From a virus (Duplodnaviria > Caudoviricetes): a stretch of 64,000 nt of DNA. Positions 2,928 to 64,000 of the stretch are shown here, one piece after another; position 1 is the first letter of the stretch, and the number at the start of each line of letters is the position of its first letter. The DNA is taken from positions 16,402 to 80,401 of the IMG/VR virus record IMGVR_UViG_3300031992_000072; one strand, given 5' to 3'. The notes beneath the pieces were generated by a model. It worked only from the letters and a program-made list of their open reading frames with translations, had not been told where the DNA came from and did not search any database. The position numbers and the translations under genes are program-made.

Positions 2928-2985
2928 ACAGACCAGTCCTCCTTTTATGAATTTATATGATAAATCCCTTACGGGAATTGAATTT

Positions 2986-3645: not shown

Positions 3646-3697
3646 TCTTTCCTTTACGGTCTATTTCGCTTGACTTCATATTTCGGTACCTAACTAA
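3646..3697 (-). promoter_or_regulatory. Conserved intergenic motif A, copy 1 (candidate phage promoter or RNA motif)
   Basis: GTTAGGTACC..TGAAGTCAAGCGAAATAGACCGTAAAGGA; recurs at 13821, 23461 and 36662. Confidence 0.6.
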
Positions 3698-3760
3698 AAA
3701 AAGGAGCGAGTAAAAATACCCGCTCCTTTGCATAACAAACTAAATATGAAATATTACACA

Positions 3761-13820: not shown

Positions 13821-13874
13821 TCTCTCCTTTACGGTTTATTTCGCTTGACTTCATAGTAAGGTACCGAACTAAAA
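13821..13874 (-). promoter_or_regulatory. Motif A, copy 2
   Basis: GTTCGGTACC..TGAAGTCAAGCGAAATAAACCGTAAAGGAGAG, about 25 nt upstream of tRNA-Leu. Confidence 0.6.
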
Positions 13875-21599: not shown

Positions 21600-22200
21600 T
21601 CATGTTAATTATTTCTTTAGTAATAAATAATCTATATTTACTAGCAGTAATTGCTATAGCAGTAACTGTATTTATAGAGTAATAAGAATATAAACTTTAG
21701 TAATCAGTATATATTCTAAGAGAGCTTTCTCTATTAAAAAGAGAAAGCTCTCTCTTATAAGGCTTTAGTAATTTATAGAATTGTAGATATAAGAATATAA
21801 ACTTCAGTCATTCTATAAGGTAATCAGAATATATATAAACCAGTATATAAAAAGCATATAAGAAGTGTATAAAGCATATAGAATTAGTGTAAAAAGCATA
21901 TAGAATAAAAAGAATATAGTGTAAAAGGTAAAAAGTATATAGAATTATTCTATTCTATAGATTAACCACCCTATAAGAATAATATACCTTAAATATACAC
22001 CATTCTATAAAGTAATCACCCTAATACAGATTAACCAGAATATAAGGTAATTACCATTCTATAAATAATTACCACATATAAAAAAATATCTATAAATAAT
22101 AAATCACCTATAGATAATTCATTTATATTCTTTAGTAATTACTTTTAAAGTAATTAATTCTTTATATATTATATATATTATATATATAAGAAGAAACTTT
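21600..22200. repeat. Very AT-rich non-coding region with short direct repeats (candidate replication origin)
   Basis: Repeats of AAAGCATATA(A)GAA, CATTCTATAA and ATAAGAATATA; perfect 14-bp inverted repeat at about 21719-21753; no ORF of 60 aa or more. Confidence 0.55.
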
Positions 22201-23460: not shown

Positions 23461-23514
23461 TCTTCTCCTTTACGGTACATTTCGCTTGTCCTCAAAGTTA
23501 GGTACCTAACGAAA
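23461..23514 (-). promoter_or_regulatory. Motif A, copy 3
   Basis: GTTAGGTACCTAAC (perfect palindrome) then TTTGAGGACAAGCGAAATGTACCGTAAAGGAGA. Confidence 0.6.
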
Positions 23515-23602
23515 TGCACTGTAAAAGAGGAGGGTTCAAGTATGGAACCCTCAAAAAAACAGGAGCCTGATTTAGTCACCAGGCTCCTGTGTAAAGTCGG
23601 AA

Positions 23603-27335: not shown

Positions 27336-29102
27336 TTAATTTACGAGTTCCTGAAAAGTCTCATAACTATGTATTCTTACGTTTTCCCAGAAACGTCCTT
27401 TGTAGCCATTGATGCTTGCATCTGCTTTAACGAGCGTTAAATCAGGAAGCTCTTTTTGATCATAGTCTGCTGCTCTTATTACAGCCCAGTTGTATGTTCT
27501 GTTTTGTTCTGCTCCCATGTTGTCGTAATCATCGCAGTTAGCGCTGACTTTCAGTTTTGCATGGTTCATCCATTCATCGATAAAGGGTTTGTATTTAAGT
27601 TCAACAAAGTTGTTGAACTTTGCCTTAATCTGATGAATTTCATTTGCACGAACTTCAATGCAAGCAATATACTTGTTGCCTTTCATCATTTTTACAATTG
27701 TTGTAAACTTTTGAACAGCTGCATTAGCATAACTGCCAACGCAAATTCCCATTCTTTCGCCAACAACAGCAAGATCTACTGAATCTTTCGCTAATTCAAA
27801 CCTGATGTCGCCATATTCACGGTTGAATCTGTTTCGCTCAAAGTCGTTATATTCAATCTCTCTGTTAGTGTATGATTTACGGGTAAGCCTATTGTAGTAA
27901 TGCTGCATAGAGTCATGGATTTCTTGGAAGTTCTTTGCCTCACGTATAATGTACATGAGTCCATCTTCTGGGATGCGCGGCATCATTCTTGAACAATCTC
28001 TGAATACGTTAATATCCTCTTGTTCAAGATGACTGATAACCCAATTTCTGTTCCTAAGCTCAAATAGCTTCGTAAGGAATGTCTTTATTTCAACCCTATG
28101 TTCTTTATATGTTTCGAGAAGTTTAACGCCAAGCGAAAAGCATCTTGGAATTTCATCAACATTTACAATTCCGGCATTCATAATCATTTTCACAATGGCA
28201 ATGTTGTTAATGTTCTTCAAGTAAAGCTTTTTGAAGGCTTTAGACATAGGAACATTGAACTTTCTTGCAATGTAGTAAATCAGGTCCTGTTCAGAGATGG
28301 CTTCTCTTATTTTCAGGGAGTTAAACCATTCAGGGCGAGTTATGCCAAAGACATTAAGACGAACGGCTTCTTTGCGATAAGTATCAAGAGCAAAACTTTT
28401 TGTCGGTCTTAACGCAGCGTTCAGTAACGAATTCTCATCAGCTTTCTCGATGATCCATGCCTTATCAGGATAGAAGGTTTTGAGACATTCTTTAAGTGCA
28501 TGGAGAGTTTCCTGTGCAAGTTTAAGATCGCTGAATGAATTTTTCGCCCAGGAAATCTGACGAATACTTTTTGATAACCCGTCATAAACATAGCAACGAC
28601 CATCAGCTGTAAAGGTATAAGATTTTGAATATTTGGTTTTCTTTACAATGTTTGCGATGCGCATTAATTCAACGTATTCAGTAGTTACTTTCAGATATCC
28701 ATCCGCAATACTGATGTGCTGGTAGATTGGAATTTCACGCACTCTTCTTCCGAGGTGTTCTTTCTGGATATAGATGTTAAATCGAATACTGAATACTTTT
28801 TTGTACTGACGCATTTTGGTTCCGTCAATATAACCGCAGATTTTTTCGCCGTTTTTGTACACGATATATGCTTTCTTTTCAGTGCATTTATCTTTAGCAA
28901 AGGCTTCTGCGTCTTCCAGAGTAGCAAACGGATACAGCGTCCGGTTGCTTTTGTTCTTGACGATATACTTCCAGGTATTCTCGTCATACTTTTCTACGAT
29001 TTTCCGAGCGTAACCGATAGACGAAACATGGGAAATTGTCACGCCTGTCAGCGGGAAATAGATGCACTTTGTGCGAGGAATGTACCACCAAATTTTGTTC
29101 AT
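27336..29102 (-). CDS. PcfJ-domain protein
   Basis: C-terminal L..VGERMGICVGSYA..IACIEVR..IHQIKAKFN; start reset to ATG 29102 (GGAGG). Confidence 0.75.
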   Translation of the reverse strand: MNKIWWYIPRTKCIYFPLTGVTISHVSSIGYARKIVEKYDENTWKYIVKNKSNRTLYPFATLEDAEAFAKDKCTEKKAYIVYKNGEKICGYIDGTKMRQYKKVFSIRFNIYIQKEHLGRRVREIPIYQHISIADGYLKVTTEYVELMRIANIVKKTKYSKSYTFTADGRCYVYDGLSKSIRQISWAKNSFSDLKLAQETLHALKECLKTFYPDKAWIIEKADENSLLNAALRPTKSFALDTYRKEAVRLNVFGITRPEWFNSLKIREAISEQDLIYYIARKFNVPMSKAFKKLYLKNINNIAIVKMIMNAGIVNVDEIPRCFSLGVKLLETYKEHRVEIKTFLTKLFELRNRNWVISHLEQEDINVFRDCSRMMPRIPEDGLMYIIREAKNFQEIHDSMQHYYNRLTRKSYTNREIEYNDFERNRFNREYGDIRFELAKDSVDLAVVGERMGICVGSYANAAVQKFTTIVKMMKGNKYIACIEVRANEIHQIKAKFNNFVELKYKPFIDEWMNHAKLKVSANCDDYDNMGAEQNRTYNWAVIRAADYDQKELPDLTLVKADASINGYKGRFWENVRIHSYETFQELVN

Positions 29103-29140
29103 GAGTAACCCTCCTAAAATGTTTTTTGGAACCAAACGTT

Positions 29141-29178
29141 CCCATAAAAAAATAAAAAGGCTAGCCGGAGCTAGCCTT
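29141..29178 (-). terminator. Intrinsic terminator
   Basis: AAGGCTAG-CTCCGG-CTAGCCTT followed by a T-rich tract. Confidence 0.8.
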
Positions 29179-29184
29179 ATAGGA

Positions 29185-32100
29185 TTAGTCGATCTTAAGA
29201 TCGTCTTCCGTGGCAGAGAGAGCAGCTTCTGCTTCGTCTGCACAGCTGATTTCAACGGCAAGACCGCCGAAGATCAACCGATACGCAGACCAGAGCTTAT
29301 TCCTGATGAAGTCGGTCTTCCCGTCCATCTTCAGGTACTTCTCATCGCAGTACGCGAACATCTGCCAGGTGATCACGTCGTATGCGTCTTCCAGCGTCTT
29401 TCCGTGAGCGACCGCGAAGGCTTCGATCTCTGCAAGAGCGTTTGCTCTCCATGCCATTTCGAAGGTAACTTCGTCGTCGTCTTCGCTGACATTGTTCTTG
29501 TCCTTATTGCTATCATCGTCCAGCCAGACAGCACGGTCACGGTCCAGCCTTCTGGCAAGGCTGTTAAACAGACCCTGATTCGGACGGAACCTTTCACCAT
29601 TGATGGTTACGAGTTCTCCGTTTCCTTCCCGGATCAGTCCGGTCAGACCACGATATCCGCATTCCTGATTGAACATGATCTTCTTGTAGTCGAACTGTCC
29701 TTCAGGCGCATCGTCGATCTTTACGTCTCTCCGAGCATTCTCTGCATACAGAGCGAAGAGCTTGTTCAGCGTCTTATACCTGTGGAGCTCGTTGAGCTTG
29801 GACGGATCAGCCAGTTCATCCAGATGGTTCTTGGGAGTCTGAAGCAGACTGTCGTTCAGATAGAGGCTATTGCTCTTATCAAGCGAGAACCTGTCGATCA
29901 TTACAGGTTTTCCGTCCGGTCCAAGCTGAACGATTCCGTCATCGTCCGTAAGGACAACGTACCTGGTTTCCTTGTAGTACGTGTTTGCTTCCCGAGCAGT
30001 TGCGAAGAACTTTTTCTTACCGTTGTGCTTTACATACCAGATGTTGCCTTCATCAACGGCATCTTTGTATACCTTCGCCCACGGCTGAAGCATACGAGCA
30101 CAGATAGAGCTTTCTTCAGGCTCTTCAATTTCCGCTCCGCCATGCTTGCTTGCGTCTACCAGAACGTTCGCAGCGAACTTCTTGAAGTCTACGCCGCGAT
30201 GAGTGACGGGCATCCTCTTGGTATACCAGCGTTTGTCCACTTCGTCCTGTTCTGTGAGCAGACCGTTCAGCAGAGCATTGAGCCCATAGACGGTAAGCCC
30301 AAGCTCATTCATATGGGTCAGACCCGCGAAGTACTCTCGAAGAACCTCTTCGGTAATCACAGTCTTCTCCGGGTTGGGCGTTTCCCAGATAATCAGTCTG
30401 TTCCATACCTTGAGTGTTTCTTTGACAGCCTCGATGATCGCAGGATCATCGCTGGTGTTGGCGTGGTCTCCATCAAAGTCCATGTCCATGGCGACTGCTA
30501 CGTCGTCATGGCAGTTCAGGAAGATTGTATATTCTTCGTTCTTAATGAACTTTCTGTAATTGCTCGGAATGGATACATTCTCCAGAACACGGACACTGTT
30601 CGGATGAACCACAGGGCTACGCCACATGGCGAGCTCTCCGTGCTTCACGGTCGGCAGATGGATCTGACCAGCCTTCAGCATTCCGTTGTCGTTCTTCCCA
30701 TGCCACGCGGCAAGGATGAAGAACGGATCGGGACAGACAAAGCTGTAGAAGCAGTCCTTCAGAATCTTTCCCGAAAACGCTTCGTTGATGTTCTGCTCCA
30801 TCTTATGTTCAATATGTTCTCTGAAAGAGGGAACGTTCACGAGCTCAGGATACTGTACGGCAACGCTGCCCCATTCTCTTCCGAGCATCTTTGTAGCGCT
30901 TTCAACTGTGTGATTGTCGTTCAGACGCTTGATGGTCTTTGCAGCCATCTTTGCAACCTGTTCATCGGTTGCTTCGCACAGGCACTGCGTTACCTGATAC
31001 GAGATGTTCTTCTTTTCCTTGGGATGAGTCTTGACTACGGTGCCAAGGGTGATCTTTTCACCCATAGCCGTACACCAGTCTTCAAAGGTCTTGTAGGCCT
31101 TGTTCTTGCCAATGCTGGTCTTGATGACAGACTCGTCCACGAAGAAGACGATATCATCGATATCCCGTCCGTCAGGTGTCTTGGTTACGCCAATGGACTT
31201 CAGGTAGGCCTGAGCATTCACATTCTTGCAACCCAGACCTTTCAGCTTCACGGGGTTGCCCCTGTAGCTGTAGAACGACGTGTCGTTCTGGAAGTCGTTC
31301 AGAATCTTGTCTGCCTTTTCAGCAGACATTCCGTTGTAAACCATCTGGTTGTGTAGTTCCATCTGAACCTTCTTCGTCATGCTGATGACGAAGAATCCGT
31401 CAGAGAACTTCACAGGAACAAGATCGTTATCCCTGTCTTCGGCATGACCGTCAAGATACAACTTCGTTGTGTTTGCCACAACGTTCTTGACTACAGTCGG
31501 ATAGATGCAGAACATCTCCGGCTTGAACGGAATTTCGATCTGGTGGCTGTACACTGCGATCAGACCTACGGTATAAGCGATGTTCTTGGCAGCAGTGTTC
31601 TGCCATTCATCATCGACTCCGCCATTAGTGTATTCCCGCATCTTGTCATAGATACTTTCTTTTACTGCAATGGTCTTGCACCATTTCGCAGCGTTCGTGC
31701 CGTGTCCGAAGATACGGTACTTGACGTTGTTCACGAGAAGACCGTTCTCGATCACGTCCAGCCATGCATCGAGCAGCCTCTCGGCACGGATGATACCTTC
31801 GAGGTCTTCCTCGTTCTTCGGCTCTGCGATGCGGCTAACTACGTGGATGACAGCATCTTTACCGCCAATTTCCATTGCCTTATCTTCTACAAGACTGACG
31901 GACTTGCGGATCGTGTCATAGACCCACAGGTTTTCAGACGTAGGATCGTTGTTCAGCTGAGCACGAATGAACTCCATGCTTTTGTACGTCTTTACGGTTT
32001 CAGGCTTACAGATCTTCCGCAGGGCGCGGACAACCTTGATGGCGGTTTTCTCACCGATGCCCTTGATTGCCGTAAGCTTCTCGATATTGTTGGTGGCTAC

Positions 32101-32436
32101 TGCGTTCCGCAGCTCACCACAGTCAATCTTGATGACAGCCTCGATCATCGGCTTATTGATCTTTTCCTTGATCATCAGCCCAATGGCGTTGATCTGCCAC
32201 TGCTTTTCGTCCAACAGTGTGTAGCAGTCATAGTCCCAGTTGTGAGCGTCAAGGACGACTCTGGTTCCATCGATAACGGACTCCAGAAGGCACTGATAAT
32301 CGCCCTTCTTGGCGTCTTCAAAGTAGCCGTAAGCCACCTTGAGATCGTCGCGTTCTACAAAGTGTACTTTTCCTGCGTTCGGGCCTTTCTTGATGATGCA
32401 AGAAACCCTGAACAGAATGTTAATAAGTTTCGCCAT
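29185..32436 (-). CDS. Second YonO/RdRP-like two-barrel RNA polymerase (RNAP-2) with N-terminal helix-hairpin-helix
   Basis: FSDGFF, WRSPVVHP and MDFDGD (about 30466-30480); LTAIKGIGEKTA HhH near residue 120; AGGAGG RBS; C-ending codon bias. Confidence 0.8.
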   Translation of the reverse strand: MAKLINILFRVSCIIKKGPNAGKVHFVERDDLKVAYGYFEDAKKGDYQCLLESVIDGTRVVLDAHNWDYDCYTLLDEKQWQINAIGLMIKEKINKPMIEAVIKIDCGELRNAVATNNIEKLTAIKGIGEKTAIKVVRALRKICKPETVKTYKSMEFIRAQLNNDPTSENLWVYDTIRKSVSLVEDKAMEIGGKDAVIHVVSRIAEPKNEEDLEGIIRAERLLDAWLDVIENGLLVNNVKYRIFGHGTNAAKWCKTIAVKESIYDKMREYTNGGVDDEWQNTAAKNIAYTVGLIAVYSHQIEIPFKPEMFCIYPTVVKNVVANTTKLYLDGHAEDRDNDLVPVKFSDGFFVISMTKKVQMELHNQMVYNGMSAEKADKILNDFQNDTSFYSYRGNPVKLKGLGCKNVNAQAYLKSIGVTKTPDGRDIDDIVFFVDESVIKTSIGKNKAYKTFEDWCTAMGEKITLGTVVKTHPKEKKNISYQVTQCLCEATDEQVAKMAAKTIKRLNDNHTVESATKMLGREWGSVAVQYPELVNVPSFREHIEHKMEQNINEAFSGKILKDCFYSFVCPDPFFILAAWHGKNDNGMLKAGQIHLPTVKHGELAMWRSPVVHPNSVRVLENVSIPSNYRKFIKNEEYTIFLNCHDDVAVAMDMDFDGDHANTSDDPAIIEAVKETLKVWNRLIIWETPNPEKTVITEEVLREYFAGLTHMNELGLTVYGLNALLNGLLTEQDEVDKRWYTKRMPVTHRGVDFKKFAANVLVDASKHGGAEIEEPEESSICARMLQPWAKVYKDAVDEGNIWYVKHNGKKKFFATAREANTYYKETRYVVLTDDDGIVQLGPDGKPVMIDRFSLDKSNSLYLNDSLLQTPKNHLDELADPSKLNELHRYKTLNKLFALYAENARRDVKIDDAPEGQFDYKKIMFNQECGYRGLTGLIREGNGELVTINGERFRPNQGLFNSLARRLDRDRAVWLDDDSNKDKNNVSEDDDEVTFEMAWRANALAEIEAFAVAHGKTLEDAYDVITWQMFAYCDEKYLKMDGKTDFIRNKLWSAYRLIFGGLAVEISCADEAEAALSATEDDLKID

Positions 32437-50767: not shown

Positions 50768-53700
50768 ATGAGTAATCCAACAATACAAATTGATCTCGAA
50801 GTTAATGGCGAAAAAGCATTACAATCAATAAGCAATTTTAAAAAAGATGCAGATGAAAAACTTTCTTCTATTGGGAAAATTGAAAAATCGTTTGCTCCGG
50901 CTGTTGAACAGTTAAATTCTGATAAATCATTATTAGGTTCTGGTGAAGCTTTTGATTCGTTTGCTAACTCAATAATGACTGCAAACAATGCAATTGCTCA
51001 AATGAGAAAAACGTTGAATAGTTTTTCTTCTTCTATTGATCTTGGAAACATTACAGACGGTATGACACGAATGTTTGAATCTGCATACCGCACAATGTTA
51101 TCAAGCATAAAAACATTAAATGCAGAAGTTGATAGAGGATTGTCAAAAGGTCCAAAAAACATTAACGCATATACGCAAGCTGAAAAATCAATAAAACTTG
51201 CCTCTGTGACTGGTCAGTCTGCTTCTGCCGACATGATTAGAATGTTAAGAATTGTCAACAACGCGCATCGTGAAACAGGATTAAATGCAGATCAGCTTGG
51301 CGAAATCATGCCAGCTCTTTCTTCTATTGTTAGAGCTAAAACGGACGAATATAGAAAAGCAACAAAATCTACTCCAAGATTAAGTGAATTAGCAAACTTT
51401 ATTGCAAATGAGGATATATTTAAAAATACAGTTGGATCATCTATTAAAGGATATAATCCTACGCAACAGCAACTTGCACAAATTGCAAAAGGAGCAATTG
51501 TTGCAACAAGAAGCAATGCATATAGAGATAATTTAGAGATTCTTAAAGCGGCTGGACTTAAAGGCAGCGAGTATCAATATGTAACAGATCAAATGCCTGA
51601 AGTATTTAAAAAAGCATATATTAATTACGGAAGACCGAATAGTTCAAAAGAAACAAATATTATCGCTAAAAATATAGGTAAACAAGCCGTAGATGAAGAA
51701 GTTTACAAAAAATTTATGCAGCTTGTTCGGAACGGAAACCAGCAAGCTATTAAGATTGGACAGGATGTAGGACTTGTACGTGCTAGAAACGGTTCTTATC
51801 AGTTTACTGGTAATGCAAGAAAAGCACAATTCGATACAATGGCTGGTATTGTTGCTCAAGTTGCTGGTGAAGCAAAGAGTTCTTTACCCTATCATTACAT
51901 TCAAAGAAACGATCAAACACAACAACAGAAACTATTAAACAGAAACAATAATATTTTTAACGATGCTCTTGAACTAATGGAAATTTTAAGCGGACAATCT
52001 GGACTTGATCCAAATGCTTATGGATACGTTCCGTTTGGTACAACAAGAGAATCTTTAAAGAATTATAGAGACTTGTTTGGTTTTGTTGGCTCTGGGAAAA
52101 ACTATAGACGCTTCAATAAAAATGCTCCTAAAATTCAAACGCTTGGTGTTGCTAATCAGTATGTTGTTCCTAAAACACATTTGGATCAAAATGGAAATCT
52201 TGTATGGAGAGATCCATCTTGGCAAAAGACAAATGGTGTTCAAGAGTCGAAAGATGATCAGTTTGCAACAATAGGTAACAGTGCTCTTACATATTTGCTT
52301 GGAATGCATGGGCACAATACATACGGATATGGGAGAACTGACGAAGGAGAAGCAAATTATCAAACACCAAAGGTTGTCAGAATAAGCACGTCACATTTAT
52401 ATAAACAAATAAGAGAAAAAAATGGGACAAGGATGATTGTAGATCCTGAAAAACAGACAGAAGCTGATCGCATTAATCGTCTTTTTGCTAGAAAAGAAAC
52501 AGCTCACTACACTCGTCCTGGCGAAAAAGAAAACGATGATAATGAATATATTGCTGCTATGGGTGATGCAGAATCACTTACAATGATTCGTAAAAAGGAT
52601 TATGATGCTATAGTAAGTAATTTTGCTAAATATGGTATGGCAAATCCATTTGATAACATGAACACAGGCGGTTTGTTTATATCTGGTGATTATAAAAATG
52701 CGGCAAAACAAATTGACTTGTCCAAGAAAAAGGCAACGCCAGGATTTCGTTATGCAGAATTAGGATATGCAAAATCTCCTTCTGCTGCTTTGGTAGACTT
52801 TGAGCAGTTATATGAATATCTTGGAATACCAAAAAACAATCAATTTATGCGTCAAAGTCAGCGTCTGGATGGTCTTGCTCTTTTTGATCCAAGCGTTCTT
52901 GGTGTCAATGCGCAGATGCGTGCTGGTATTGTTGGAAAATTTATGGGTCAAGCAACGGACTGGCGAAAATTATTATACGAATCTGGCATATTAGAAAGTG
53001 CATACAAAAAAGCAACAACTGGAGACAAAAGAAATTCAGGATTAATTGTTAAAAATGGAAGCAACGGTGTTCCTCAGGATTATTCTTTTTATATGCCTAT
53101 GGTTGGCTTAGAAAAAGAAGAAGCGCAATCATATATTGATAGAATAAATGAACTTCAAAGAAAAGCCAACAATGGACCTATTTCTGAAGATGAAAAAAAT
53201 GAGCTTGAACGAATCAGAAACACATATTTTTATGATATCATGGATAAAAAATATGATGCTCTGATTGCCGAATCTACGATAAAGAACAACGATAAGTATA
53301 GAATTATTTCAAAAAATGCTTTTACAAATAAAGATGGTTTATTTCGTGGAGAAAAATGGGTAAAAGATCGCGGAGATGGAACTGTTGAATTATCAGCAGA
53401 CCAACAACGCAGATATTTTGAAGCAGCTGTTAAAGAATCTGGTGGCTATTGGATTAACAAAACTGGATATGACTTTCGTACTGATAAAGATTTTATACCT
53501 GAATCTCTTGCAACAGCTATGGGTCTTGAAGTTGGGGATTTAAAAGATCAATCTAATGAAAATTATAACGAATACATTCATAAACTTGAGACAGATAAAA
53601 ATGCAAGAATAAACTTTTTAAATACAACAGCTTACGGAAGACGTCTTGTCCAAGAAGGGTTATATGACAGTGATCTTGCAGATAGGTTAATCAGATCACA

Positions 53701-56700
53701 CATTAATGATTATGCTTCTAAGCAACAACAAGGACACTTGTTTCTTCCTCAGTATGGGATAGATAATCTTTTAACTGGTGTTTTGCCTGGTTCTATATTT
53801 GGAAATATTTTTGAACAAGGTTTTGATGTAAAGGTTTCAGATAATAATGATTATAGAAAATTGTTTTCGTATCAAGGCGATGAAGATCGTGTATTTATGA
53901 AAACGTTAAACGGAAAACAACAAGAAGCGTTACGAAATAATGCAATAGCTGCAAAGCTTATGTTATCTCGTATGCCAGCTGGCCCTGGCGAATATGGGAT
54001 AGGCGTACAAAACTTGGGTGACATAGAAGCTATGCAGAAAGCTTTGGATGCACTTGGTGTTGATTATTCTGATACTATATTTACAGACCCAAGTCTTCAA
54101 TATAAATTAATGACAGGTGACTACGATGGAGATACTGCTTGGGTTATCAGAGGTTTAAACGACAATCAATTTGCTCGAATGCAACAAATTCAAGATTATG
54201 TACAACGAGCAAGAGAGAAAATAATGTCACAAATGGACACAGCTTCTCCAGAAGAAAAAAAAAGACTTGAAAATGACTTACAAGCTTTTACTAATTTTGG
54301 CGCTGATCACTTTACCGCTCAAATTGGTATGGGTCAAGCTACAGCTGCAATAAGAAACTCTCTCGCAGACTTGTCCGATAACGATCCTGATAAATGGATA
54401 GCGATAGCAGAAGCTATCGACGCATATGATAAAAATACTTCTGAAGCTATGAAAGAAGGCAAGATTGTAAATCTTGGTGTGCACGCTTCAAAACAAGCAA
54501 TGGAAGGTGGATTGTTCAGAAGGTTTATCAAACAGATTAACGCTTACGGGCAAGGCTCTGAAAACGCTCATCCAGACTTGTTTGCTACAAGACTTCCAGA
54601 AATTCAAGATACAGGAACATTATTCGATATTGTTTCTAACTTTAGAAATAAAAGAAATGGTAGCGATGTTGGTAAACGGTTTGGTAGTGATCTTGATAGT
54701 TGGTTGTTTGAACAGTATGGTTATTCAAATTCTTTTGAAGCGCAAGCTGCCAGAGCTTATGCTGATATGTTTAAAAACATAGAAGGTGGCATTCGTTTAA
54801 CTTCAAAAGACGATATTTCAAATGCGAGATTAATTGCGGTAAGATGGCAAAATTCTCTTGAAAAAGATAGAAAAGCAAACAGAGATCCTGAAGCTTTGGC
54901 AGAAGAACAACATCGTTTAAATCAGTTTGTCAAAAGACTTCACCAAGTAGAAACATCCGGTTCTTTGCATGAAGATTTTTTAGCACAAACAGAAGAACTG
55001 GAAAATGAAAGAACACGACTTATTAAATCTGGTGTTACTGAAGATGATAAAAGAATTATTGGTTTAGATAAGAAAATTGGATTATATAAAACTTTAACAT
55101 CTGATCTTTCTCTTCCTTTCCAAATCGCAAAAGAAAACTGGGAAACAGAACAAAAGGAAATGGACGAAGAAGTTCGCAAAAGATATGAAGCAAATCTTGC
55201 ATTAGCTAAGACAAATAATGTAAATATGACCAACGGTGTTATGGCTATGCTTGGACCTGCTTTGTCTACAGATTTAGTTAAAGCGGGCAAAATTAACTTT
55301 TCAGATGTAACTCCTTGGTTGTATGAAAATCTTGCTAAAGATCAATTTAGACTTAAAGGCATTGAAGGTTTTGAATTTAATGAGAATGGCGAAATGGTCA
55401 GAGACAAACTGCCAAAGAAAACTGTTGACTTTTTCCCATGGCCTCATAATGTTGAAGGTATTAAAAGTCAAAAAGCAGAAATTCTTGCAAGAGAAATGGA
55501 CACTCGCCATGAATGGGTCCCGGGTTATTCAGAATCTATTGCGACAATAATGGGTAAAATTCGACATGAATCTTTCGAAGAAGCATTGTTGCAATACGCA
55601 AAAGGCGAAACTGCTGATATCGCAAAGATTTATGAGGGAATGTTAACTGCTGCAGATAGCAGTACAAGCTCGCCATTTAGAAAATTAGGGTACTCTCTTA
55701 AAAGGGATGAAAAAACAGGAGTATATACGGTAGAAGGTGCAGATAATTCAATCAACGAAGGTATAAGAGGAGCCTTAGGAACATGGAATGAAAAGACTCA
55801 AAAATATGAAGGCGGCTCTCTTTCGAATTTGTATAATTATATTACTTCTAACGGATATCGTGTTGCCAACATAGAAGGTTTTAACATTAATAAAAAAGGC
55901 GAAAAAATGAATTCTAGGGAAACCGTACCAGATGATTACTTTGGTCGTGGTACAGTTCTTAGAACAAAGATAAAAAGCCCAACAGGAGAAGAAATCGATA
56001 AAGTTGGTACATTTGCTCCTGATTTAATTCTTCAGGGTAAAGATGGAAAGTACCATATGTTAGACTACAAATCTGGAGAACAAGGTGCTTATGATAGTCT
56101 TTACCAAATGATGATTTATGCAGCTGATATTCAGGAAAAAGTTCAGCAATTCAGAAATTCCGGACAAAGAGCAGAAGCTAAAAAACTTGGTTGGGATCAA
56201 TATCTTGACAATAAAGGAAATTTAAAATTTGGTAGTGTTTTTGGTTTTGATACGCAAGCCGGAAAAGGATATAAATTTTCATTTAGCCAAGATGCCGCAC
56301 AAGAATTATCTTCGAGATACAAAGAATCTATTCAGTCAAAATTGTTTGCAAGCGATGAAGAACTTGTTTCTGCTCAAAGACGCCTTGTTGCAGAAGTTGC
56401 TAAAAAGTACGGAATCGAACAAGAACATATCCAAAAGAAATCTACAGAAGAAGCAGTTCGTGGATTAACAAAAGATGATGCAAGAGGAAGTTGGTATTCT
56501 AATTATCTTGCCGATAAATTCAATAAAGACGAAGATACGTTAAGAGAAATTTCAAGCACAGGATATGCCGCAATTCGTCGCTATGGCGATAGAGAAGTTG
56601 GTGGATACAGCAAATATGCATCTTCTCGTAGAATGCTTGATGAAATGATTGATCCTGAAACGATAGATCAATTAATAGGACAAGCAAAAGAAAAAGGAGA

Positions 56701-59700
56701 TTCTGGGGCCATATTATCATTGCTTGAGTATCAACAAAAAATTAATAGAGCCAGAGAGACACTTAATCAAGGCGAACTTCTTGCTGCACAAAATTCTTTT
56801 AAGGATATTAACTCTTATATACAAGAACAATTTTTTGGCGTAAAAGAGTCAAAACCTTTAGCGGCTTTTAATGCTGTTAGAAAGCGTATTTTAGACGCTG
56901 AATCTATTCGTGAAGGCTTAAAAGAAAATAAAGATGTTTATGATGCTGTTAATCAAAAATGGCTCAATGATGAATATCGTGATGCGTATATTGAAGCTGG
57001 TAAAGATAAAGAAATAGCATTAGAAACATTTGATTCATTATTGCCAGATTTTAAAAACAGAGCCATAAAAGAAAATAATAAAAATTTACAAAAACTAATT
57101 TCAAATAACAATGAACCAACTGCTGAAGATGAAATTGAACAATATTATCAAAATAGATATGATGCTCTTGAGCAATATGTTAAACAACAAGAGCATGATC
57201 TTGATGAATACAGTAAAAAGCTTGCACAAAAAGACGATAAAGGACAACTTGTTTTAAAACACGGATCAAAAGCACGACAAATATTTGAAGAACTTAGAGA
57301 TAACAGTCACGATAATTTAATTGAAGCTTTTAATGCACTTAACAATACAAGCGCATTAGAAGAAGTTGCACGAACAGAATACGAAAAATCTATCGGCCTT
57401 GTTGGTGGAGAACGTGCTAAAAAAAGATCAGATAAACAAAGAGAATATTTAGATAAAATAAAAAAAGAATACGACGAAACTCGTGATGAAAATTTAAATC
57501 CTTTGCGCCAAGAATTATATGAAGCAGAACTTTCTGGAGATACTGAAAAATATAATAAAATACGAAAGAAACTTGATAAGATTTATAAAGATACTCCTCG
57601 TCGTAGAAAAAAGATGCAAGAATATGCTCAATTCGAAGAAGAGCAAAGAATGCAAAAAGAAATTGAAGACACAGAAGATCAGTTAAAAAGGGGTTCAATA
57701 GATAGATTATATTCCGGAAAAGGAATGTCTGAAGAAGATAGTATAAATGCAATATTCTTGCAGCGAAAAAAACAAGCACAAGAATATGCAGCAACTTTAG
57801 ACAAAGATGCAAGAGAAGAATTTTGGAAAACACATCAAGACGACACTCTTAAAGCGCAGATTAAACAAGAAATAACCGAAAGCAAGGAATTACAAGATCT
57901 TCAACGAGAAAATGCACGTCTTAATCTTGTTGATCAGGGTGATGTCCGTGTTCGTAATATGCGTCATCAATTTGATCGCCAAAACAGGCAACAGCAAATG
58001 CGCTATTCTCGTTCTCGTATTGTTCAGGCTATGTATGGGGCTGAACAACGCAGAGACGCTAAAGAACAAGAAATTCAAAATATTGAAGATCAACGTAAAT
58101 CCATACAAAGACAACAGAATTATTACGCAAAAGAACTTGAACTTGCAAAAAAATCAGGCGATGAAGAACGTATAAACAAAGCTCAATTTAATTATGACCA
58201 AACGGCACAACAACTTCAAAATTTAGACAAAGCCTCTAAAGAAGCTAAAGATCAGCTTGATCAATTAAATAACGGTGCTCAGACTGCTCAGGCTGTTTTC
58301 GGAGCATTTGGTCAAACGTTGGGCATGGTTGCTTCTCGTCTTGGTCGTCGCCTTTTCCAAAAGACTCTTCAAGAGACAAAACAGTTTATAAAACAATTTG
58401 ATGCTTCAATGAACGAAATCCAAACCATTACCCTTAAGTCAGATAAAGAAATGCAAGGAATTCGTTCTCAAACAATAAACAAAGCTCTTGGATTAAGGAC
58501 GTCCGTCTCTAACGTTTCTAATGTTGAAGCAGCACTTTACCGTCAGGGTTTAAGTGACCAGGAAGTTTCTGCTCGTACAGATTCTATTATAAAATTTGCC
58601 ACTGTTACCAAGCTTAATGTGCAAGAAGCAACAAAGATTATTACTACTGCTCTTCAAAACGACTTAGTAGCTTCTGCCAATGAAGCAATGGATGCATTGG
58701 TTGCTTTAGGCGATAACGCTGCAACAACTGCGGCTGAAATTGGTAAAGGTATGCAAAAAGCTGCAGCATCCGCTAAAGTTGCAGGCGTATCTTATGCAGA
58801 ACTTACCGCTCTTTTAACTATTGGCACATCTGATACGCAATTAAGCGGAACGCAAGTAGGTACTGCATTACAAACAGTGTTCTCTCGTATGAGAAGAATG
58901 TCTGTCAGTGGATGGACGGCTGATCAGAACGGCAAAAAAACAACTGCGAGTGACGCAGAAGCAGCATTAGCCTCTGTTGGTGTAGACCTCTGGGATAATA
59001 AAGCTATTGGCAAGATGCGCACTGCTTATGATGTGTTGCTTGACTTGTCTAAGGTATGGCAAAACTTAAGTGACGCTCAGAAGAACATTGTCATGAATGC
59101 AATGGCTGGCACTCGTCAAACAAATGTGTTCTCTACATTAATGGAGGGTATGTCTGAAGATAGCGGTGCTACGCTTGAAAAGTACTTAGGACTTGCTGAA
59201 GGTTCCGAAGGTATTACACAATCCAAGTATGAAATTGCTATGCAAAGTCTATCAGCCGCTATGGACAAGTTAAAAAGCTCGTGGGATGCGGTTGTAGAAA
59301 GTTTTACAAACGCTGGTGCAATTACTGGCGCTATTGATCTTATTTCTGGATTCTTACAGAAAATAGCTGATGTTGCATCTAGCGATACTGCTGGTCAAAT
59401 AGGATTGGTTACTGGTGCTATTATCTCTGGAATAGCTGGAATAGCTGCTACATGTATAGCAGCAAAAACAGCCGTTGCGCCCATTGCTAGTCTTATAGGT
59501 TTACTAATTGGTGGCGGAATAGCGATTGCTTCTGGATTAACTTTAAGTTCTTTGTTTGAAGGAAAATCTGAAGACGAACTTCTTGCTGAACAAAATCAAC
59601 AAGCATTAAGCAATATATCTTCTACTAGAAAGATTAATGATGCTACAGTTTCTGATGCGAACAAAGCAATCGATAAAGTTAAAGAGGCAGGTAAAGAATG

Positions 59701-62700
59701 GGAAAAACTTGATAATGGAGAAAATACAGATAACCTCAAAGTTGCTCTTCAGAATCTTGCTGATATTTTCCCAAATGTCTCAAGTGCCGTTAAAGAGTCT
59801 ATAACAGATTTAAGCAAATGGTCCGACGTCGTCAAAGAAGCAAAAGAAAAAGTAGACCAATTCGCTACAACTGGGCAACGAGATGTTGTGAAGAAAACTC
59901 TTGATTATATTGATGAGAATCTGTATGGAGATTACGTGTTAGACCGAAAGCTTAAAATTTCTTCATTGGAAGGCGCACAGGAAGCAGAAAGTGAATTTAA
60001 AAAAGCTTATTATGGCAAAGGTTCTTCGGTCTTATATAATTCAAACAATGATTTATTTAGCGGCATTGTTCTCGATGTAAATCCTGATAAACTATTATCT
60101 GAAGGTACAAAAGAAGAACAAGCAATTGCTTTAACTGAAGCATATAGAAACAATCCTAATTTCGCAAAATACGCCAAACCTTATTTAAATTCAGAAGTAA
60201 TTAATCAACTTGATAATAAATCTATTGAACGGCCTTACGATTCTGATTCTTTTGTTGAGTGGGCTTCTGGCGGACTTGTTCGCATACTTAATGACATTAA
60301 TGCAAATAAAACAAGAGACGATATTAATGCTGCGGCAGCGTTCCTTTCCAAGTCATACAAAGATGAAGATTCTTTGAATAGATTTGCGAATTATATTTCT
60401 GAAAATGGAGAAGTAATTTGGGATAAATTTAATACACAAGAGAATACACGCGAAAACGCTCTGATGTTTGCGCAGTTGGCTTCCGGAAGTAAAGTGCTTC
60501 AATCGTGGATTGGTAATACGAATCCAGAAGTAAGAAAAAATATATTTAAAAATGGAGAGATTAATTATTCGTATTTAAACGAAAACGAAGAAATAATATC
60601 TAACTTAGCAAAAGAGTATGCTAACGATCAAGTCAATTCAACTGAATATGCTGCAAGGCGTTCTGCTTCAAGGACTTTCTTGAAAGAAAAGTTACCAGAA
60701 GTTTTAGCGGATGATTTTGCTATGATGGCAAATGATCGATTTAGCGCTGAAGATGTACAAACTTTATTTTTGCGTGGACTTGAAAGTGAAATCAAAAACA
60801 ATCCAGATTTAATTAATGCTGATGGTAACTACGATACAGAAGCTTTAAAAACGTTTGTAAGTAAATTCCTTAACAGTTGGCTAGATAATACTTCTAGTTT
60901 CTTAAATGAATATGTTGCAGAATATGGAGACTATAGAGATTTCGCATACCACATAAATGAAAAAGACAGTAATACGTGGTTTAACGATTATGATAAAGCA
61001 GTAGAATATGCAAGGACGCATAATGTTAAATTTGATGAAATTAAAGATAAAAACGGAAACGTTGCTTATCAAACAAATCGACAGTTATTATCCGCGAAAC
61101 AACAAGAAGCAAACGCAAATAATAGACAAAATTTATTGAAGAATATTATATATGGATATAACGAAGGTGCTGGATTCAATCTTCTTACAGAAGCAGAACA
61201 GCGAGAGATTGCAAAAGACAAAGCTAGATCATTAATTGGGCATGGAATGCCAGTAACTGAAAAAGATATTATAAGTATGACAGAAGATCTTTCCAAAAAA
61301 GCTTCTGAACAAGGAATTGAAACTTATGGCAGCATATATAAGCTCGAACAAGCTGCAAAAGAAGGTGGATGGGACGCAGATCTTGCTAACGCAATTTCTG
61401 GCAACTCTAATGCTATGGCAGCTTATCTTGCTAATGATTATGATGCTCTTGTAAAATCCTTACAGGAAGAAATTGTCGGCAAGTCAACTCCACAATCACG
61501 AGCTGATTTAATGCGTTCATTCGGTTCTATGTTTAGCGGTAATCGTGCTGCTGTAGAATCATTTAGAAAAGAAGGATTAACTTCTGATGCATATAAACAA
61601 TGGCAGTCTTTCTTTGGAGATAACGCAGATTTAATTTTAGATGAACTTGCAGCAGGAACCCTCGAGCAAAATAAAGCGTTGTATGACGAATATCGTCGTA
61701 TTCTTGCCGAAAAAGGATTAAAGATAGGAACCGGGAAAATGTTTACCGGTGTTGAAACAACAGGATTAGCGCAGCAAATTCTCTCCGGCGGATTTAAAGA
61801 TTGGGCAGAAGCTCAAGAAAAGATGACTGAGTGGACTACAGATGAATGGAGTGCTCTTGAAAGTAAATATCCTGCTTTAAAACAGTATATGCAGATGACA
61901 GAAGAGCAGCGTAATTCTCAGGAAGGACAAAACTTACTTCGTAACGTAAAAATTCAGATGAGTGTTTCTGGAATTAGTGATCTTGAAGAGGCTGGTAAAA
62001 TAGCAGAAGGAACCGCTACAGAACTTGAAAAGCTTCAAAAAGGCGGTCATATTGCTATTGAAGTTCTTATGCAGTATCGCACCGAAGCGTTTGAGAATAA
62101 GCAAAAATCAGCAAAGCTTTATAACGGCACTATGCAAGAACAAGATGAAGCTGCAATGTCTGTTCTCAATATGTCCGAAGAACAATATTACGCAAATAGA
62201 CAAGCTAACCTTGAACTTGCAAGACGGACAGAGCAAAATGACAGAAAATATCGTGCAAGGACTTGGCAAGAAAGATATGAAAATGCAGCAACAAAAGAAC
62301 AAGCAGATGAAATTTTAAGGGATGCAAAACTTGAAGGATATGCGTATGTTAAAAACGGAGATTACAGTGAATATAAAATCCCGGCTGGATATACTGTAGA
62401 TGAATTTGGAAATGTTTATGATAAAAATGGGAACTTTAGCGATACAGAAACTTTAAAACGTGAAGCATCTGTAGGCCATTCGTTTATACACAGCGGTACA
62501 GGCAGTGTTACACGAAACGATTATTTTGGCAACAAAGAAGCGTTATACACAAATTCTCAATTAGCTTCCTGGGCAGAAGAAATTCTTAAAGGTGACTTAA
62601 CTGCTAACACTAAAGACAGAGAGAATGAGTATACAGCCGCAGCCGCGAAACTCGGAGAATATTCTGTTGAATATTTACGGATGCTTGATTTAAACAAAGC

Positions 62701-64000
62701 ATTAACAGAAGCAGGTGAAGAACCTTTATACGATGAAACAGCCTTAGCTGAAGCTAAACAAATGGCAGATGCTGAAGTACAAAAGGCTAAGGAAAACGCA
62801 GCAGAGCAAGATGCTCTTAAAGAAGCTGAACTTAATAATATTTCTTTAAGTGGAGCTTTTGCATATCAGCAACTTCAACGTCGGCAACAAAACAAAGGTG
62901 CTTATGCAGCTGAAAGATTATTTACATCTCTAAATGACAAAACAGTTAATAATTTTGATGACTTATTGGATGTTGTTGGCAGCGCAGATGCAAACGACTG
63001 GAAAGACTTTATTGAATCATCTAGCGACCTTAGTAATAAGCTTGCTGATATGGGTGTTAAGATCGGAGAGGATGGTTTTGACTTCAGCGATCTTGAAAAG
63101 AATGGATATGAAGCGGCTGACGTTCTTAAAGTTTTAAAAGAAGCGGCTTCTGAAGCATCTAATGGATTAAAAGGATTCAAAGAAGTATTAACAACAGGTC
63201 AAGAAACAGCGCGAGCAGAAGAATTTATCGGCGGTGAAGTCACTGACGAAAATTATAAAGCATTTGAAGCATTTATCGGAAATAATGAAGTTGCACAAAT
63301 TGCCAAAAACTATGCTGTTCAATACAAAGCTGATAAACAATTATACGATGAATATCAAGGTTTAACAAATACTTCAGATAGAGCAGCGTGGTTAATAAAC
63401 CATAACAATAAAGAGCCAACAAATCCTGGCGAATTTGATTTATTCGGTCAATACGAAGGATACAACAGAGATTATGTTGAAGCGCTTTATGATAATGCAC
63501 TGCTTGGTAAACAGGGATTAACAGATGCAGATAGACTTCGTATGTTTGAAGGAATTATGAACGACGTTGGTCAAGGGACTTCTGTCGAACAAATTCGTAA
63601 GTCAAACAACACCGGATTTTATTCAGATGTTCTTTCCGGAGTTAATGGCGGCGAAGACTATCTTCAGATGATTGAAATTCTCAACGGCAAAGGGCTTGAT
63701 TTTAAACAATTTAAAGGAATTGAAGAAACAAGCGATGAATTCCAACAGCTTCAAGCAGCGTTTGAAGGAACAGATTATTCTGCAAATCAATTCCTTCTTA
63801 CGTCAGAAGAAATTGACAATGAGTTGAGAAGTAATGCAATTTCAACATATAAGCTGTTTGGTAAAGAAACTGAGAAAGTCAACGGGATTTACAAAAAATT
63901 AAACGGCACAGTAGAAGAACAGCTTGAAGCTAGAAAAGAAATGACCAGGCATAAGCTTGATCTTTCAAATGCTACTTATTACACTTCCGGCAAAGGTGCA
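50768..64000 (+). CDS. Giant tape-measure protein, 3'-truncated by the window, with embedded DxDGD polymerase-like and PD-(D/E)xK nuclease-like regions
   Basis: AAGGAGG RBS then ATG 50768. In-frame motifs: RLDG (52862), LSRMP (53963), TGDYDGD (54113), PDLI (56018), DYKSG (56063) and tape-measure core FDASMNEIQ..GDNAATTAAEIG..GTALQTVFSRM (from 58397). Continuity inferred from frame consistency and the lack of any closed long ORF in the track. Confidence 0.85.
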   Translation, partial: MSNPTIQIDLEVNGEKALQSISNFKKDADEKLSSIGKIEKSFAPAVEQLNSDKSLLGSGEAFDSFANSIMTANNAIAQMRKTLNSFSSSIDLGNITDGMTRMFESAYRTMLSSIKTLNAEVDRGLSKGPKNINAYTQAEKSIKLASVTGQSASADMIRMLRIVNNAHRETGLNADQLGEIMPALSSIVRAKTDEYRKATKSTPRLSELANFIANEDIFKNTVGSSIKGYNPTQQQLAQIAKGAIVATRSNAYRDNLEILKAAGLKGSEYQYVTDQMPEVFKKAYINYGRPNSSKETNIIAKNIGKQAVDEEVYKKFMQLVRNGNQQAIKIGQDVGLVRARNGSYQFTGNARKAQFDTMAGIVAQVAGEAKSSLPYHYIQRNDQTQQQKLLNRNNNIFNDALELMEILSGQSGLDPNAYGYVPFGTTRESLKNYRDLFGFVGSGKNYRRFNKNAPKIQTLGVANQYVVPKTHLDQNGNLVWRDPSWQKTNGVQESKDDQFATIGNSALTYLLGMHGHNTYGYGRTDEGEANYQTPKVVRISTSHLYKQIREKNGTRMIVDPEKQTEADRINRLFARKETAHYTRPGEKENDDNEYIAAMGDAESLTMIRKKDYDAIVSNFAKYGMANPFDNMNTGGLFISGDYKNAAKQIDLSKKKATPGFRYAELGYAKSPSAALVDFEQLYEYLGIPKNNQFMRQSQRLDGLALFDPSVLGVNAQMRAGIVGKFMGQATDWRKLLYESGILESAYKKATTGDKRNSGLIVKNGSNGVPQDYSFYMPMVGLEKEEAQSYIDRINELQRKANNGPISEDEKNELERIRNTYFYDIMDKKYDALIAESTIKNNDKYRIISKNAFTNKDGLFRGEKWVKDRGDGTVELSADQQRRYFEAAVKESGGYWINKTGYDFRTDKDFIPESLATAMGLEVGDLKDQSNENYNEYIHKLETDKNARINFLNTTAYGRRLVQEGLYDSDLADRLIRSHINDYASKQQQGHLFLPQYGIDNLLTGVLPGSIFGNIFEQGFDVKVSDNNDYRKLFSYQGDEDRVFMKTLNGKQQEALRNNAIAAKLMLSRMPAGPGEYGIGVQNLGDIEAMQKALDALGVDYSDTIFTDPSLQYKLMTGDYDGDTAWVIRGLNDNQFARMQQIQDYVQRAREKIMSQMDTASPEEKKRLENDLQAFTNFGADHFTAQIGMGQATAAIRNSLADLSDNDPDKWIAIAEAIDAYDKNTSEAMKEGKIVNLGVHASKQAMEGGLFRRFIKQINAYGQGSENAHPDLFATRLPEIQDTGTLFDIVSNFRNKRNGSDVGKRFGSDLDSWLFEQYGYSNSFEAQAARAYADMFKNIEGGIRLTSKDDISNARLIAVRWQNSLEKDRKANRDPEALAEEQHRLNQFVKRLHQVETSGSLHEDFLAQTEELENERTRLIKSGVTEDDKRIIGLDKKIGLYKTLTSDLSLPFQIAKENWETEQKEMDEEVRKRYEANLALAKTNNVNMTNGVMAMLGPALSTDLVKAGKINFSDVTPWLYENLAKDQFRLKGIEGFEFNENGEMVRDKLPKKTVDFFPWPHNVEGIKSQKAEILAREMDTRHEWVPGYSESIATIMGKIRHESFEEALLQYAKGETADIAKIYEGMLTAADSSTSSPFRKLGYSLKRDEKTGVYTVEGADNSINEGIRGALGTWNEKTQKYEGGSLSNLYNYITSNGYRVANIEGFNINKKGEKMNSRETVPDDYFGRGTVLRTKIKSPTGEEIDKVGTFAPDLILQGKDGKYHMLDYKSGEQGAYDSLYQMMIYAADIQEKVQQFRNSGQRAEAKKLGWDQYLDNKGNLKFGSVFGFDTQAGKGYKFSFSQDAAQELSSRYKESIQSKLFASDEELVSAQRRLVAEVAKKYGIEQEHIQKKSTEEAVRGLTKDDARGSWYSNYLADKFNKDEDTLREISSTGYAAIRRYGDREVGGYSKYASSRRMLDEMIDPETIDQLIGQAKEKGDSGAILSLLEYQQKINRARETLNQGELLAAQNSFKDINSYIQEQFFGVKESKPLAAFNAVRKRILDAESIREGLKENKDVYDAVNQKWLNDEYRDAYIEAGKDKEIALETFDSLLPDFKNRAIKENNKNLQKLISNNNEPTAEDEIEQYYQNRYDALEQYVKQQEHDLDEYSKKLAQKDDKGQLVLKHGSKARQIFEELRDNSHDNLIEAFNALNNTSALEEVARTEYEKSIGLVGGERAKKRSDKQREYLDKIKKEYDETRDENLNPLRQELYEAELSGDTEKYNKIRKKLDKIYKDTPRRRKKMQEYAQFEEEQRMQKEIEDTEDQLKRGSIDRLYSGKGMSEEDSINAIFLQRKKQAQEYAATLDKDAREEFWKTHQDDTLKAQIKQEITESKELQDLQRENARLNLVDQGDVRVRNMRHQFDRQNRQQQMRYSRSRIVQAMYGAEQRRDAKEQEIQNIEDQRKSIQRQQNYYAKELELAKKSGDEERINKAQFNYDQTAQQLQNLDKASKEAKDQLDQLNNGAQTAQAVFGAFGQTLGMVASRLGRRLFQKTLQETKQFIKQFDASMNEIQTITLKSDKEMQGIRSQTINKALGLRTSVSNVSNVEAALYRQGLSDQEVSARTDSIIKFATVTKLNVQEATKIITTALQNDLVASANEAMDALVALGDNAATTAAEIGKGMQKAAASAKVAGVSYAELTALLTIGTSDTQLSGTQVGTALQTVFSRMRRMSVSGWTADQNGKKTTASDAEAALASVGVDLWDNKAIGKMRTAYDVLLDLSKVWQNLSDAQKNIVMNAMAGTRQTNVFSTLMEGMSEDSGATLEKYLGLAEGSEGITQSKYEIAMQSLSAAMDKLKSSWDAVVESFTNAGAITGAIDLISGFLQKIADVASSDTAGQIGLVTGAIISGIAGIAATCIAAKTAVAPIASLIGLLIGGGIAIASGLTLSSLFEGKSEDELLAEQNQQALSNISSTRKINDATVSDANKAIDKVKEAGKEWEKLDNGENTDNLKVALQNLADIFPNVSSAVKESITDLSKWSDVVKEAKEKVDQFATTGQRDVVKKTLDYIDENLYGDYVLDRKLKISSLEGAQEAESEFKKAYYGKGSSVLYNSNNDLFSGIVLDVNPDKLLSEGTKEEQAIALTEAYRNNPNFAKYAKPYLNSEVINQLDNKSIERPYDSDSFVEWASGGLVRILNDINANKTRDDINAAAAFLSKSYKDEDSLNRFANYISENGEVIWDKFNTQENTRENALMFAQLASGSKVLQSWIGNTNPEVRKNIFKNGEINYSYLNENEEIISNLAKEYANDQVNSTEYAARRSASRTFLKEKLPEVLADDFAMMANDRFSAEDVQTLFLRGLESEIKNNPDLINADGNYDTEALKTFVSKFLNSWLDNTSSFLNEYVAEYGDYRDFAYHINEKDSNTWFNDYDKAVEYARTHNVKFDEIKDKNGNVAYQTNRQLLSAKQQEANANNRQNLLKNIIYGYNEGAGFNLLTEAEQREIAKDKARSLIGHGMPVTEKDIISMTEDLSKKASEQGIETYGSIYKLEQAAKEGGWDADLANAISGNSNAMAAYLANDYDALVKSLQEEIVGKSTPQSRADLMRSFGSMFSGNRAAVESFRKEGLTSDAYKQWQSFFGDNADLILDELAAGTLEQNKALYDEYRRILAEKGLKIGTGKMFTGVETTGLAQQILSGGFKDWAEAQEKMTEWTTDEWSALESKYPALKQYMQMTEEQRNSQEGQNLLRNVKIQMSVSGISDLEEAGKIAEGTATELEKLQKGGHIAIEVLMQYRTEAFENKQKSAKLYNGTMQEQDEAAMSVLNMSEEQYYANRQANLELARRTEQNDRKYRARTWQERYENAATKEQADEILRDAKLEGYAYVKNGDYSEYKIPAGYTVDEFGNVYDKNGNFSDTETLKREASVGHSFIHSGTGSVTRNDYFGNKEALYTNSQLASWAEEILKGDLTANTKDRENEYTAAAAKLGEYSVEYLRMLDLNKALTEAGEEPLYDETALAEAKQMADAEVQKAKENAAEQDALKEAELNNISLSGAFAYQQLQRRQQNKGAYAAERLFTSLNDKTVNNFDDLLDVVGSADANDWKDFIESSSDLSNKLADMGVKIGEDGFDFSDLEKNGYEAADVLKVLKEAASEASNGLKGFKEVLTTGQETARAEEFIGGEVTDENYKAFEAFIGNNEVAQIAKNYAVQYKADKQLYDEYQGLTNTSDRAAWLINHNNKEPTNPGEFDLFGQYEGYNRDYVEALYDNALLGKQGLTDADRLRMFEGIMNDVGQGTSVEQIRKSNNTGFYSDVLSGVNGGEDYLQMIEILNGKGLDFKQFKGIEETSDEFQQLQAAFEGTDYSANQFLLTSEEIDNELRSNAISTYKLFGKETEKVNGIYKKLNGTVEEQLEARKEMTRHKLDLSNATYYTSGKGA

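Follow-up and report, generated by a model that had tools for sequence, protein, structure and literature searches.

Does the giant tape-measure gene of this gut phage also encode an RNA polymerase that could be injected together with the genome? The window (the whole stretch of 64,000 nucleotides (nt) that was analysed) is part of an 80,401-nt IMG/VR contig, and the DNA originates from a sheep gut metagenome. Positions 50768-64000 of the plus strand form a single uninterrupted frame of 4411 codons, which runs past the end of both window and contig. The full-length identical product in the protein database (P0002) has 5958 amino acids (aa) and is encoded on a 116,861-nt contig. The possibility that the 3′ remainder of this open reading frame (ORF) lies at the contig start was ruled out, as the contig is not circular. 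An earlier note on this DNA had placed an RNA polymerase within the tape-measure ORF. This reading is supported by invariant catalytic residues, a confident structure model and fold matches: the module at aa ~461-1300 is predicted to be a two-barrel RNA polymerase in a single chain, and its active-site signature is intact.

Polymerase motifs are invariant in giant homologues

The motifs RLDG, QMR..GKF, SRMP and TGDYDGD, on which the earlier note was built, were all located at the codons claimed for them. All features of the giant ORF lie on the plus strand. The motif of the first barrel (beta-like, double-psi beta-barrel B or DPBB-B) occupies positions 52862-52942 (aa 699-725) and consists of R699-L-D-G702 and Q716-M-R718..G723-K724-F725. 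The motifs of the catalytic barrel (beta′-like, DPBB-A) follow at positions 53966-54136. They comprise S1067-R-M-P1070, with the RxP residues R1068 and P1070, and T1116-G-D-Y-D-G-D1122, which belongs to the metal-binding loop TGDYDGDT (aa 1116-1123). The distance between RxP and DxDGD is 50 aa, compared to 43 and 47 aa in two free-standing polymerases of the same phage. The same motif order as in these two enzymes and a similar spacing of about 50 aa had been proposed before, and both were recovered.

To estimate how often such motifs occur by chance, the ORF was shuffled 5000 times. D.DGD appeared in 496 shuffles (~10%), and the bare motif is therefore weak evidence. The combination RxP-(30-70)-DxDGD was obtained in 13 of the 5000 shuffles (0.26%). 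It is because of conservation and fold that the motif signal stands above chance. A search of 5.8 billion proteins returned 12 giant homologues of 5059-6710 aa, all of which carry the tape-measure domain PF10145. In an alignment of the ORF with 11 giant homologues (24-73% identity), D701, Q716, R718, K724, R1068, P1070 and T1116-G-D-x-D-G-D-T1123 are invariant. Conservation of DxDGD in homologues, on which the earlier note had made its reading depend, was found throughout, with D[YF]DGD in every full-length relative found. Invariance of the three aspartates, of RxP and of the R/K pair at 24% identity is, as judged from these alignments, the signature of selection on catalysis. Searching 1.84 billion representative proteins with phmmer gave only 31 matches, all of them giant tape-measure-like proteins or pieces thereof. 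The matches occupy a constant position at ~aa 380-1500, and the distant ones read NTGDFDGDT. The module was not found as a free-standing protein in this set.

The predicted fold is that of two-barrel RNA polymerases

An AlphaFold2 model of aa 380-1500 was built from 29 sequences and reached a mean predicted local distance difference test score (pLDDT) of 81.2 and a predicted template modelling score (pTM) of 0.77. The two-barrel RNA polymerase module (positions 52148-54670, aa ~461-1301) is the span that aligns to RDR2 and QDE-1 (model residues 82-922). It is followed by a helical extension (positions 54671-55237, aa ~1302-1490) of long, confidently predicted helices. In a Foldseek search against the Protein Data Bank (PDB), all 13 matches at E ≤ 0.001 were QDE-1 or RDR2, with a probability of 1.0 and an E-value of 7e-6 for QDE-1. 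In VIA-align comparisons, maize RDR2 scored highest (Z 14.1, 519 residues aligned, root-mean-square deviation 4.3), followed by QDE-1 (Z 11.5-12.4), P74-26 gp62 (Z 10.1), P23-45 gp96 (Z 8.6, 378 residues), crAss-like phi14:2 gp66 (Z 6.0, 542 residues) and cellular beta′ (Z ~5.8). The match to beta′ covers the catalytic barrel and the bridge-helix region (model residues 609-867). In the viral structure library BFVD, the top matches were phage YonO-like ‘RdRPs’ and crAss-like large virion proteins.

The DxDGD loop (D1118, D1120 and D1122) is located in the model between a helix (model residues 729-735) and a strand (744-748). R718 and K724 lie in predicted strands (336-350) and are collinear with R..K of the YonO orthologue of this phage. 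A metal-binding DxDGD barrel, a second barrel with conserved basic residues and an overall fold match, three features of the two-barrel superfamily, are all present. The structural comparison that had been suggested earlier, a search for a double-psi beta-barrel with QDE-1 and phi14:2 gp66 as references, yielded fold matches exclusively to two-barrel RNA polymerases. The connector between the barrels has ~285 aa in the model. Within it, positions 53135-53233 (plus strand, aa 790-822) show a weak match to a DUF896/YnzC-like helical hairpin (E 3e-4, sub-cut-off).

Several observations weigh against the assignment as a polymerase and against its delivery. The Pfam family RdRP (PF05183) scored only 12.1 and 14.5 bits on the module, below the gathering threshold of 23.8. 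PDB sequence searches, started from one sequence and from a profile, did not retrieve any polymerase, and hhalign comparisons with profiles of the phage's own two polymerases were collinear but insignificant (probability <2%). The identification rests on a predicted structure and on motifs, and the phage is uncultured. In addition, a globular module of ~840 aa with a long inter-barrel connector appears hard to reconcile with storage in and passage through a tail tube. Columns 426-466 of Pfam RdRP align exactly on the DxDGD loop. BLASTP of the module against each of the free-standing polymerases of the same phage gave nothing significant. By sequence, the fused module is a family separate from PF05183.

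QDE-1 and RDR2 (PDB 2J7N, 7W82 and 7EU1) are the best solved matches, with Z 11.5-14.1 over 500-530 residues across both barrels. On the other hand, identity is ~10% and the biology of these enzymes is unrelated. The likeness tells the structural clade and not the template that is used. With SPbeta YonO and Pfam RdRP, the module shares the motif order (DG..R..K, then RxP..DxDGD) and the fold class. It differs from them in that it neither retrieves nor is retrieved by YonO-like proteins, never stands free and stays at 12-14.5 bits, compared to the cut-off of 23.8.

The polymerase module is continuous with a tape-measure core

A tape-measure core in the same frame, starting from codon 2544, had been part of the original reading. 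Pfam PhageMin_Tail (PF10145) matches positions 58484-59110 (aa 2573-2781) with an E-value of 4.9e-28, and tape-measure PHROGs match over aa 2291-3852, in agreement with this assignment. Neither a stop codon nor a frameshift, either of which had been named as an argument against the fusion, separates the polymerase region from the core; the frame is continuous. Downstream of the core, a Kyte-Doolittle scan revealed a hydrophobic stretch (positions 59390-59557, aa 2875-2930), which we read as ~3 membrane helices. Genes for terminase, portal and a virion structural protein are located upstream of the giant ORF on the same strand. The PF10145 domain, the hydrophobic helices that follow it and the location behind head and tail genes are features of a phage tail tape measure, and we assign the ORF as this protein in a long-tailed, SPbeta/c-st-like phage.

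From the N- to the C-terminus, the protein is composed of a leader of ~460 aa, the polymerase, the helical extension, a RecB-like nuclease, a coiled coil, the tape-measure core, the membrane helices and a helical ruler of ~3000 aa. The enzymes thus make up a cargo in the N-terminal third of the chain. The leader (positions 50768-52147, aa 1-460) is conserved among homologues and carries no recognised domain. The part of it that was modelled (aa 380-460) is of low confidence, and an ESM Atlas search with the leader returned only unnamed clusters. Pfam scans of ORF segments did not detect a peptidase. Besides the DUF896 match in the connector, a weak sub-cut-off match to the (HhH)2 region of EME1/MUS81_C was obtained in the helical ruler at positions 61835-61960 (plus strand, aa 3690-3731; E 1e-4 on a sub-fragment). 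The entire 5958-aa protein contains one cysteine.

A RecB-like nuclease domain is encoded in the same chain

A nuclease in the giant ORF had been claimed separately by the same reader and was confirmed by a fold match. The domain (positions 55445-56437, aa ~1560-1890) is of the RecB/AddB/Cas4-like PD-(D/E)xK type. Its motifs D1752, D1766-x-K1768 and Q1780..Y1784 are intact and are conserved in at least 90% of a 12-row alignment. A second model, covering aa 1540-1900 (pLDDT 80.9), matches only nucleases of the RecB/AddB/AdnA/Dna2/MGME1/Cas4 type. The Foldseek match to ACE1 has an E-value of 6e-4, and VIA-align gave Z 10.8 over 223 residues. With the nuclease domains of RecB, AddB, AdnA and Dna2 and with Cas4-family ACE1 (PDB 9IAC, 9NP6, 4CEH and 5EAW), the domain shares the PD-(D/E)xK core with D, DxK and QxxxY. 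It differs from these proteins in being embedded in a tape-measure protein and in having no cysteines. The four cysteines of an iron-sulphur (Fe-S) cluster, which mark the Cas4, AddB and Dna2 subgroup, are missing, with no cysteine in aa 1540-1900. The domain therefore has no means to bind such a cluster. Judged by the model, it is RecB-like and not Cas4 proper. The nuclease domain is kept in all relatives that were checked.

Comparison with phage polymerases that are delivered with the genome

The concept of a virion polymerase fused to a tape measure is not new here and has already been published for gp96 of the Thermus phage P23-45. In this 5002-aa tape measure, the N-terminal aa 327-1124 are an active two-barrel polymerase (Chaban et al. 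2024, PMC10770324). The virions of P23-45 contain this enzyme within full-length gp96. It binds and transcribes pre-early genes, one of which encodes a second polymerase that is not a virion component (PMC10770324). The enzyme is unusually flat, lacks a clamp and has a short disordered inter-barrel connector (PMC10770324). In a literature search, no paper on a tape-measure-polymerase fusion was found besides Chaban et al. 2024 (PMC10770324).

The protein described here and gp96 (PDB 8H2M/8H2N) are both giant tape measures (5958 and 5002 aa, respectively) in which a non-essential N-terminal leader is followed by the polymerase. Both polymerases are single-chain two-barrel enzymes of ~800 aa with a TG.D[FY]DGDT loop. 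Both genomes also encode non-virion two-barrel polymerases, two in this phage and one in P23-45. No homology to gp96 was detected at the sequence level: BLASTP found nothing at E < 0.01, hhalign aligned 39 columns around the TG.DFDGDT loop with a probability of 11%, and PDB sequence searches with the module did not retrieve 8H2M or 8H2N. The structural match to gp96 is weaker than those to RDR2, QDE-1 or gp62. The ~285-aa connector, as modelled, hints at an architecture unlike that of the flat gp96 with its short disordered connector. Furthermore, the RecB-like nuclease is absent in gp96, and the metallopeptidase of gp96 is absent here. The phages themselves also differ: P23-45 is an Oshimavirus, whereas the one studied here is mesophilic, comes from the gut and is of the SPbeta/c-st type.

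A polymerase that resides in a very large virion protein and enters with the genome to carry out early transcription is also found in crAss-like phage phi14:2 (gp66) and in phage N4 (virion RNA polymerase). On the other hand, the carriers of these polymerases are not tape-measure proteins, and the N4 enzyme is T7-like and not of the two-barrel type.

Proposed function of the fused polymerase

The continuous frame, the fold, the invariance of the catalytic residues and a domain order conserved across the clade are computed results. We propose delivery and early transcription by analogy with gp96, for which experiments demonstrated both (PMC10770324), and from what is generally known of tape measures. 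It is likely that the two-barrel polymerase of the tape measure is ejected with the genome and transcribes the first genes without the host RNA polymerase. The giant protein would be packaged in the tail lumen. Upon adsorption it would be ejected, and the hydrophobic helices would form a channel through the envelope. The N-terminal enzymes, which would adjoin the leading DNA end, would enter the cytoplasm, where the fused polymerase would transcribe the first-entering genes independently of the host RNA polymerase. Middle and late transcription would then probably be handled by the two free-standing polymerases, with the YonO orthologue in the role that YonO has in SPbeta. The probable targets of the nuclease, which would be delivered along with the polymerase, are DNA ends or host DNA. 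This is the least certain part of the model; end processing, an attack on host DNA and counter-defence are possible roles.

Some tape-measure proteins are processed during assembly, and polymerase and nuclease might be cut from the precursor before or during this process. They would then provide a third, non-virion polymerase in the producing cell that is never injected. The difficulty of fitting a globular ~840-aa module with a ~285-aa connector into the tail lumen also speaks for such a scenario, which we nevertheless consider unlikely. The earlier note had likewise assumed that the polymerase is probably released by proteolysis. This part of its reading found no support, as neither a protease domain nor a conserved cleavage motif was found and the P23-45 virions contain the polymerase within full-length gp96 (PMC10770324). 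In addition, the fusion is kept in relatives at 22-26% identity, which indicates that the physical link matters. A different objection accepts injection and concerns the purpose of the enzyme. Genome entry of phage T7 is driven by transcription. By this precedent, the injected polymerase could mainly be a motor or end-handler that pulls the genome in, or that works with the nuclease to make primers or decoy RNA, instead of serving early gene expression. The conserved DNA nuclease in the same chain is in line with this idea, as is the ability of QDE-1, among the nearest solved structures, to act on RNA and DNA templates. Such a role is compatible with gene expression as well, and the fused enzyme of P23-45 has a defined block of pre-early genes that it binds and transcribes (PMC10770324). 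As the main function, we regard it as improbable.

That the module is an inactive polymerase relic, retained only to fill or lengthen the tape measure, is very unlikely. Nothing specific points to it except that the sequence has diverged past the reach of profile searches, and it is opposed by the invariance, at an overall identity of 24%, of the three aspartates and RxP in one barrel and of the R/K pair in the other. An assembly chimera of a polymerase gene and a tape-measure gene has to be considered for a metagenome assembly in which the contig ends within the ORF. However, more than 25 independent proteins or contigs, drawn from several sources, have this architecture. A 36,955-nt contig from what is probably the source run also spans the stretch without a single difference, and the module was never seen free-standing among the representative proteins. 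We consider a chimera next to impossible.

For the delivered polymerase, which remains our preferred reading, the comparison with Thermus phages defines what is new. So far, the fusion of a virion polymerase to a tape measure has been demonstrated only in a few Thermus phages (P23-45 gp96). Its presence in mesophilic gut phages of an unrelated clade would point to a recurring strategy rather than a curiosity. The polymerase described here is of another sequence family, shares its chain with a nuclease and is accompanied by two more conserved phage polymerases. It also offers a second system for the question of how large enzymes are stored in and passed through the tail tube. It is conceivable, although we hold it to be somewhat doubtful, that the fusion arose independently of the Thermus case from a YonO/QDE-1-like branch and that the nuclease was added afterwards. 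If this were true, tape measures would be general vehicles for injecting sets of enzymes, and the clade would run a relay of three polymerases (injected, early and late) with no need for the host RNA polymerase. Since this two-barrel family is missed by standard profiles, such modules are probably under-annotated in viromes.

Free-standing polymerases, lineage and distribution

Two free-standing RNA polymerases in the window had been reported before, and both gave a match to Pfam RdRP. The first (positions 105-3035, minus strand) is a 976-aa ORF with FDVDGD and an RdRP match at E 6.9e-14. It is the orthologue of SPbeta YonO, with 32% identity and E 4e-109. The second (positions 29185-32436, minus strand; 1083 aa, DFDGD) is a divergent paralogue of YonO and carries an N-terminal helix-hairpin-helix. 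Its RdRP match (E 3.4e-5, 23.2 bits) is just under the cut-off of 23.8. Directly downstream of this gene, and slightly overlapping it, a PcfJ-like protein is encoded at positions 27336-29261 (minus strand; Pfam E 4e-11).

The terminase of the phage is 28-30% identical to the terminases of Clostridium phage c-st and SPbeta-like phages. On the basis of this similarity, the phage belongs to the SPbeta/c-st supergroup. A single-sequence scan of IMG/VR with the module detected no relative, and a profile scan of IMG/VR detected seven contigs at 22-26% identity. All seven have a giant ORF of the same layout, with DFDGD followed by D[YW]KS ~615-680 aa further on. In the two of these ORFs that were scanned, the PF10145 core is located at ~aa 2600-2950. 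Both relatives with a completeness of 99-100% carry matches to both free-standing polymerases, and the set of three polymerases appears to be a feature of the clade. In one 99%-complete relative (G005, the IMG/VR contig of L008), the YonO orthologue is divided at ~19.5-24.0 kb into three ORFs of 221, 358 and 379 aa, which are separated by gaps of 1.4 and 0.3 kb. These could be introns or inserted mobile genes.

No match was obtained by tblastn with the module against 50,697 deposited phage genomes. A scan of 185,579 GTDB species genomes found no relative, and therefore no prophage host can be named. Sheep-gut RNA libraries contain short identical contigs along the ORF, which cannot show transcription or processing.

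Repeated elements in the minus-strand region

A conserved element of ~50 nt (core ..GGTACC..TATGAAGTCAAGCGAAATA.ACCGTAAAGGAGA) is present at positions 3646-3699, 13821-13874 and 23462-23515 of the window, read on the minus strand. A fourth copy lies ~12.8 kb before the window start. The element is located directly after terminators that consist of a hairpin and a T-run, recurs approximately every 10-16 kb and heads blocks of minus-strand genes. It may serve one of the phage polymerases as a promoter or leader. In the same minus-strand region, three near-tandem copies of an AT-rich 25-mer (GTAAAAAGCATATAGAAT..) are found in an intergenic stretch at positions 21867-21952. The copies could act as an operator, as an origin or as a group of promoters.

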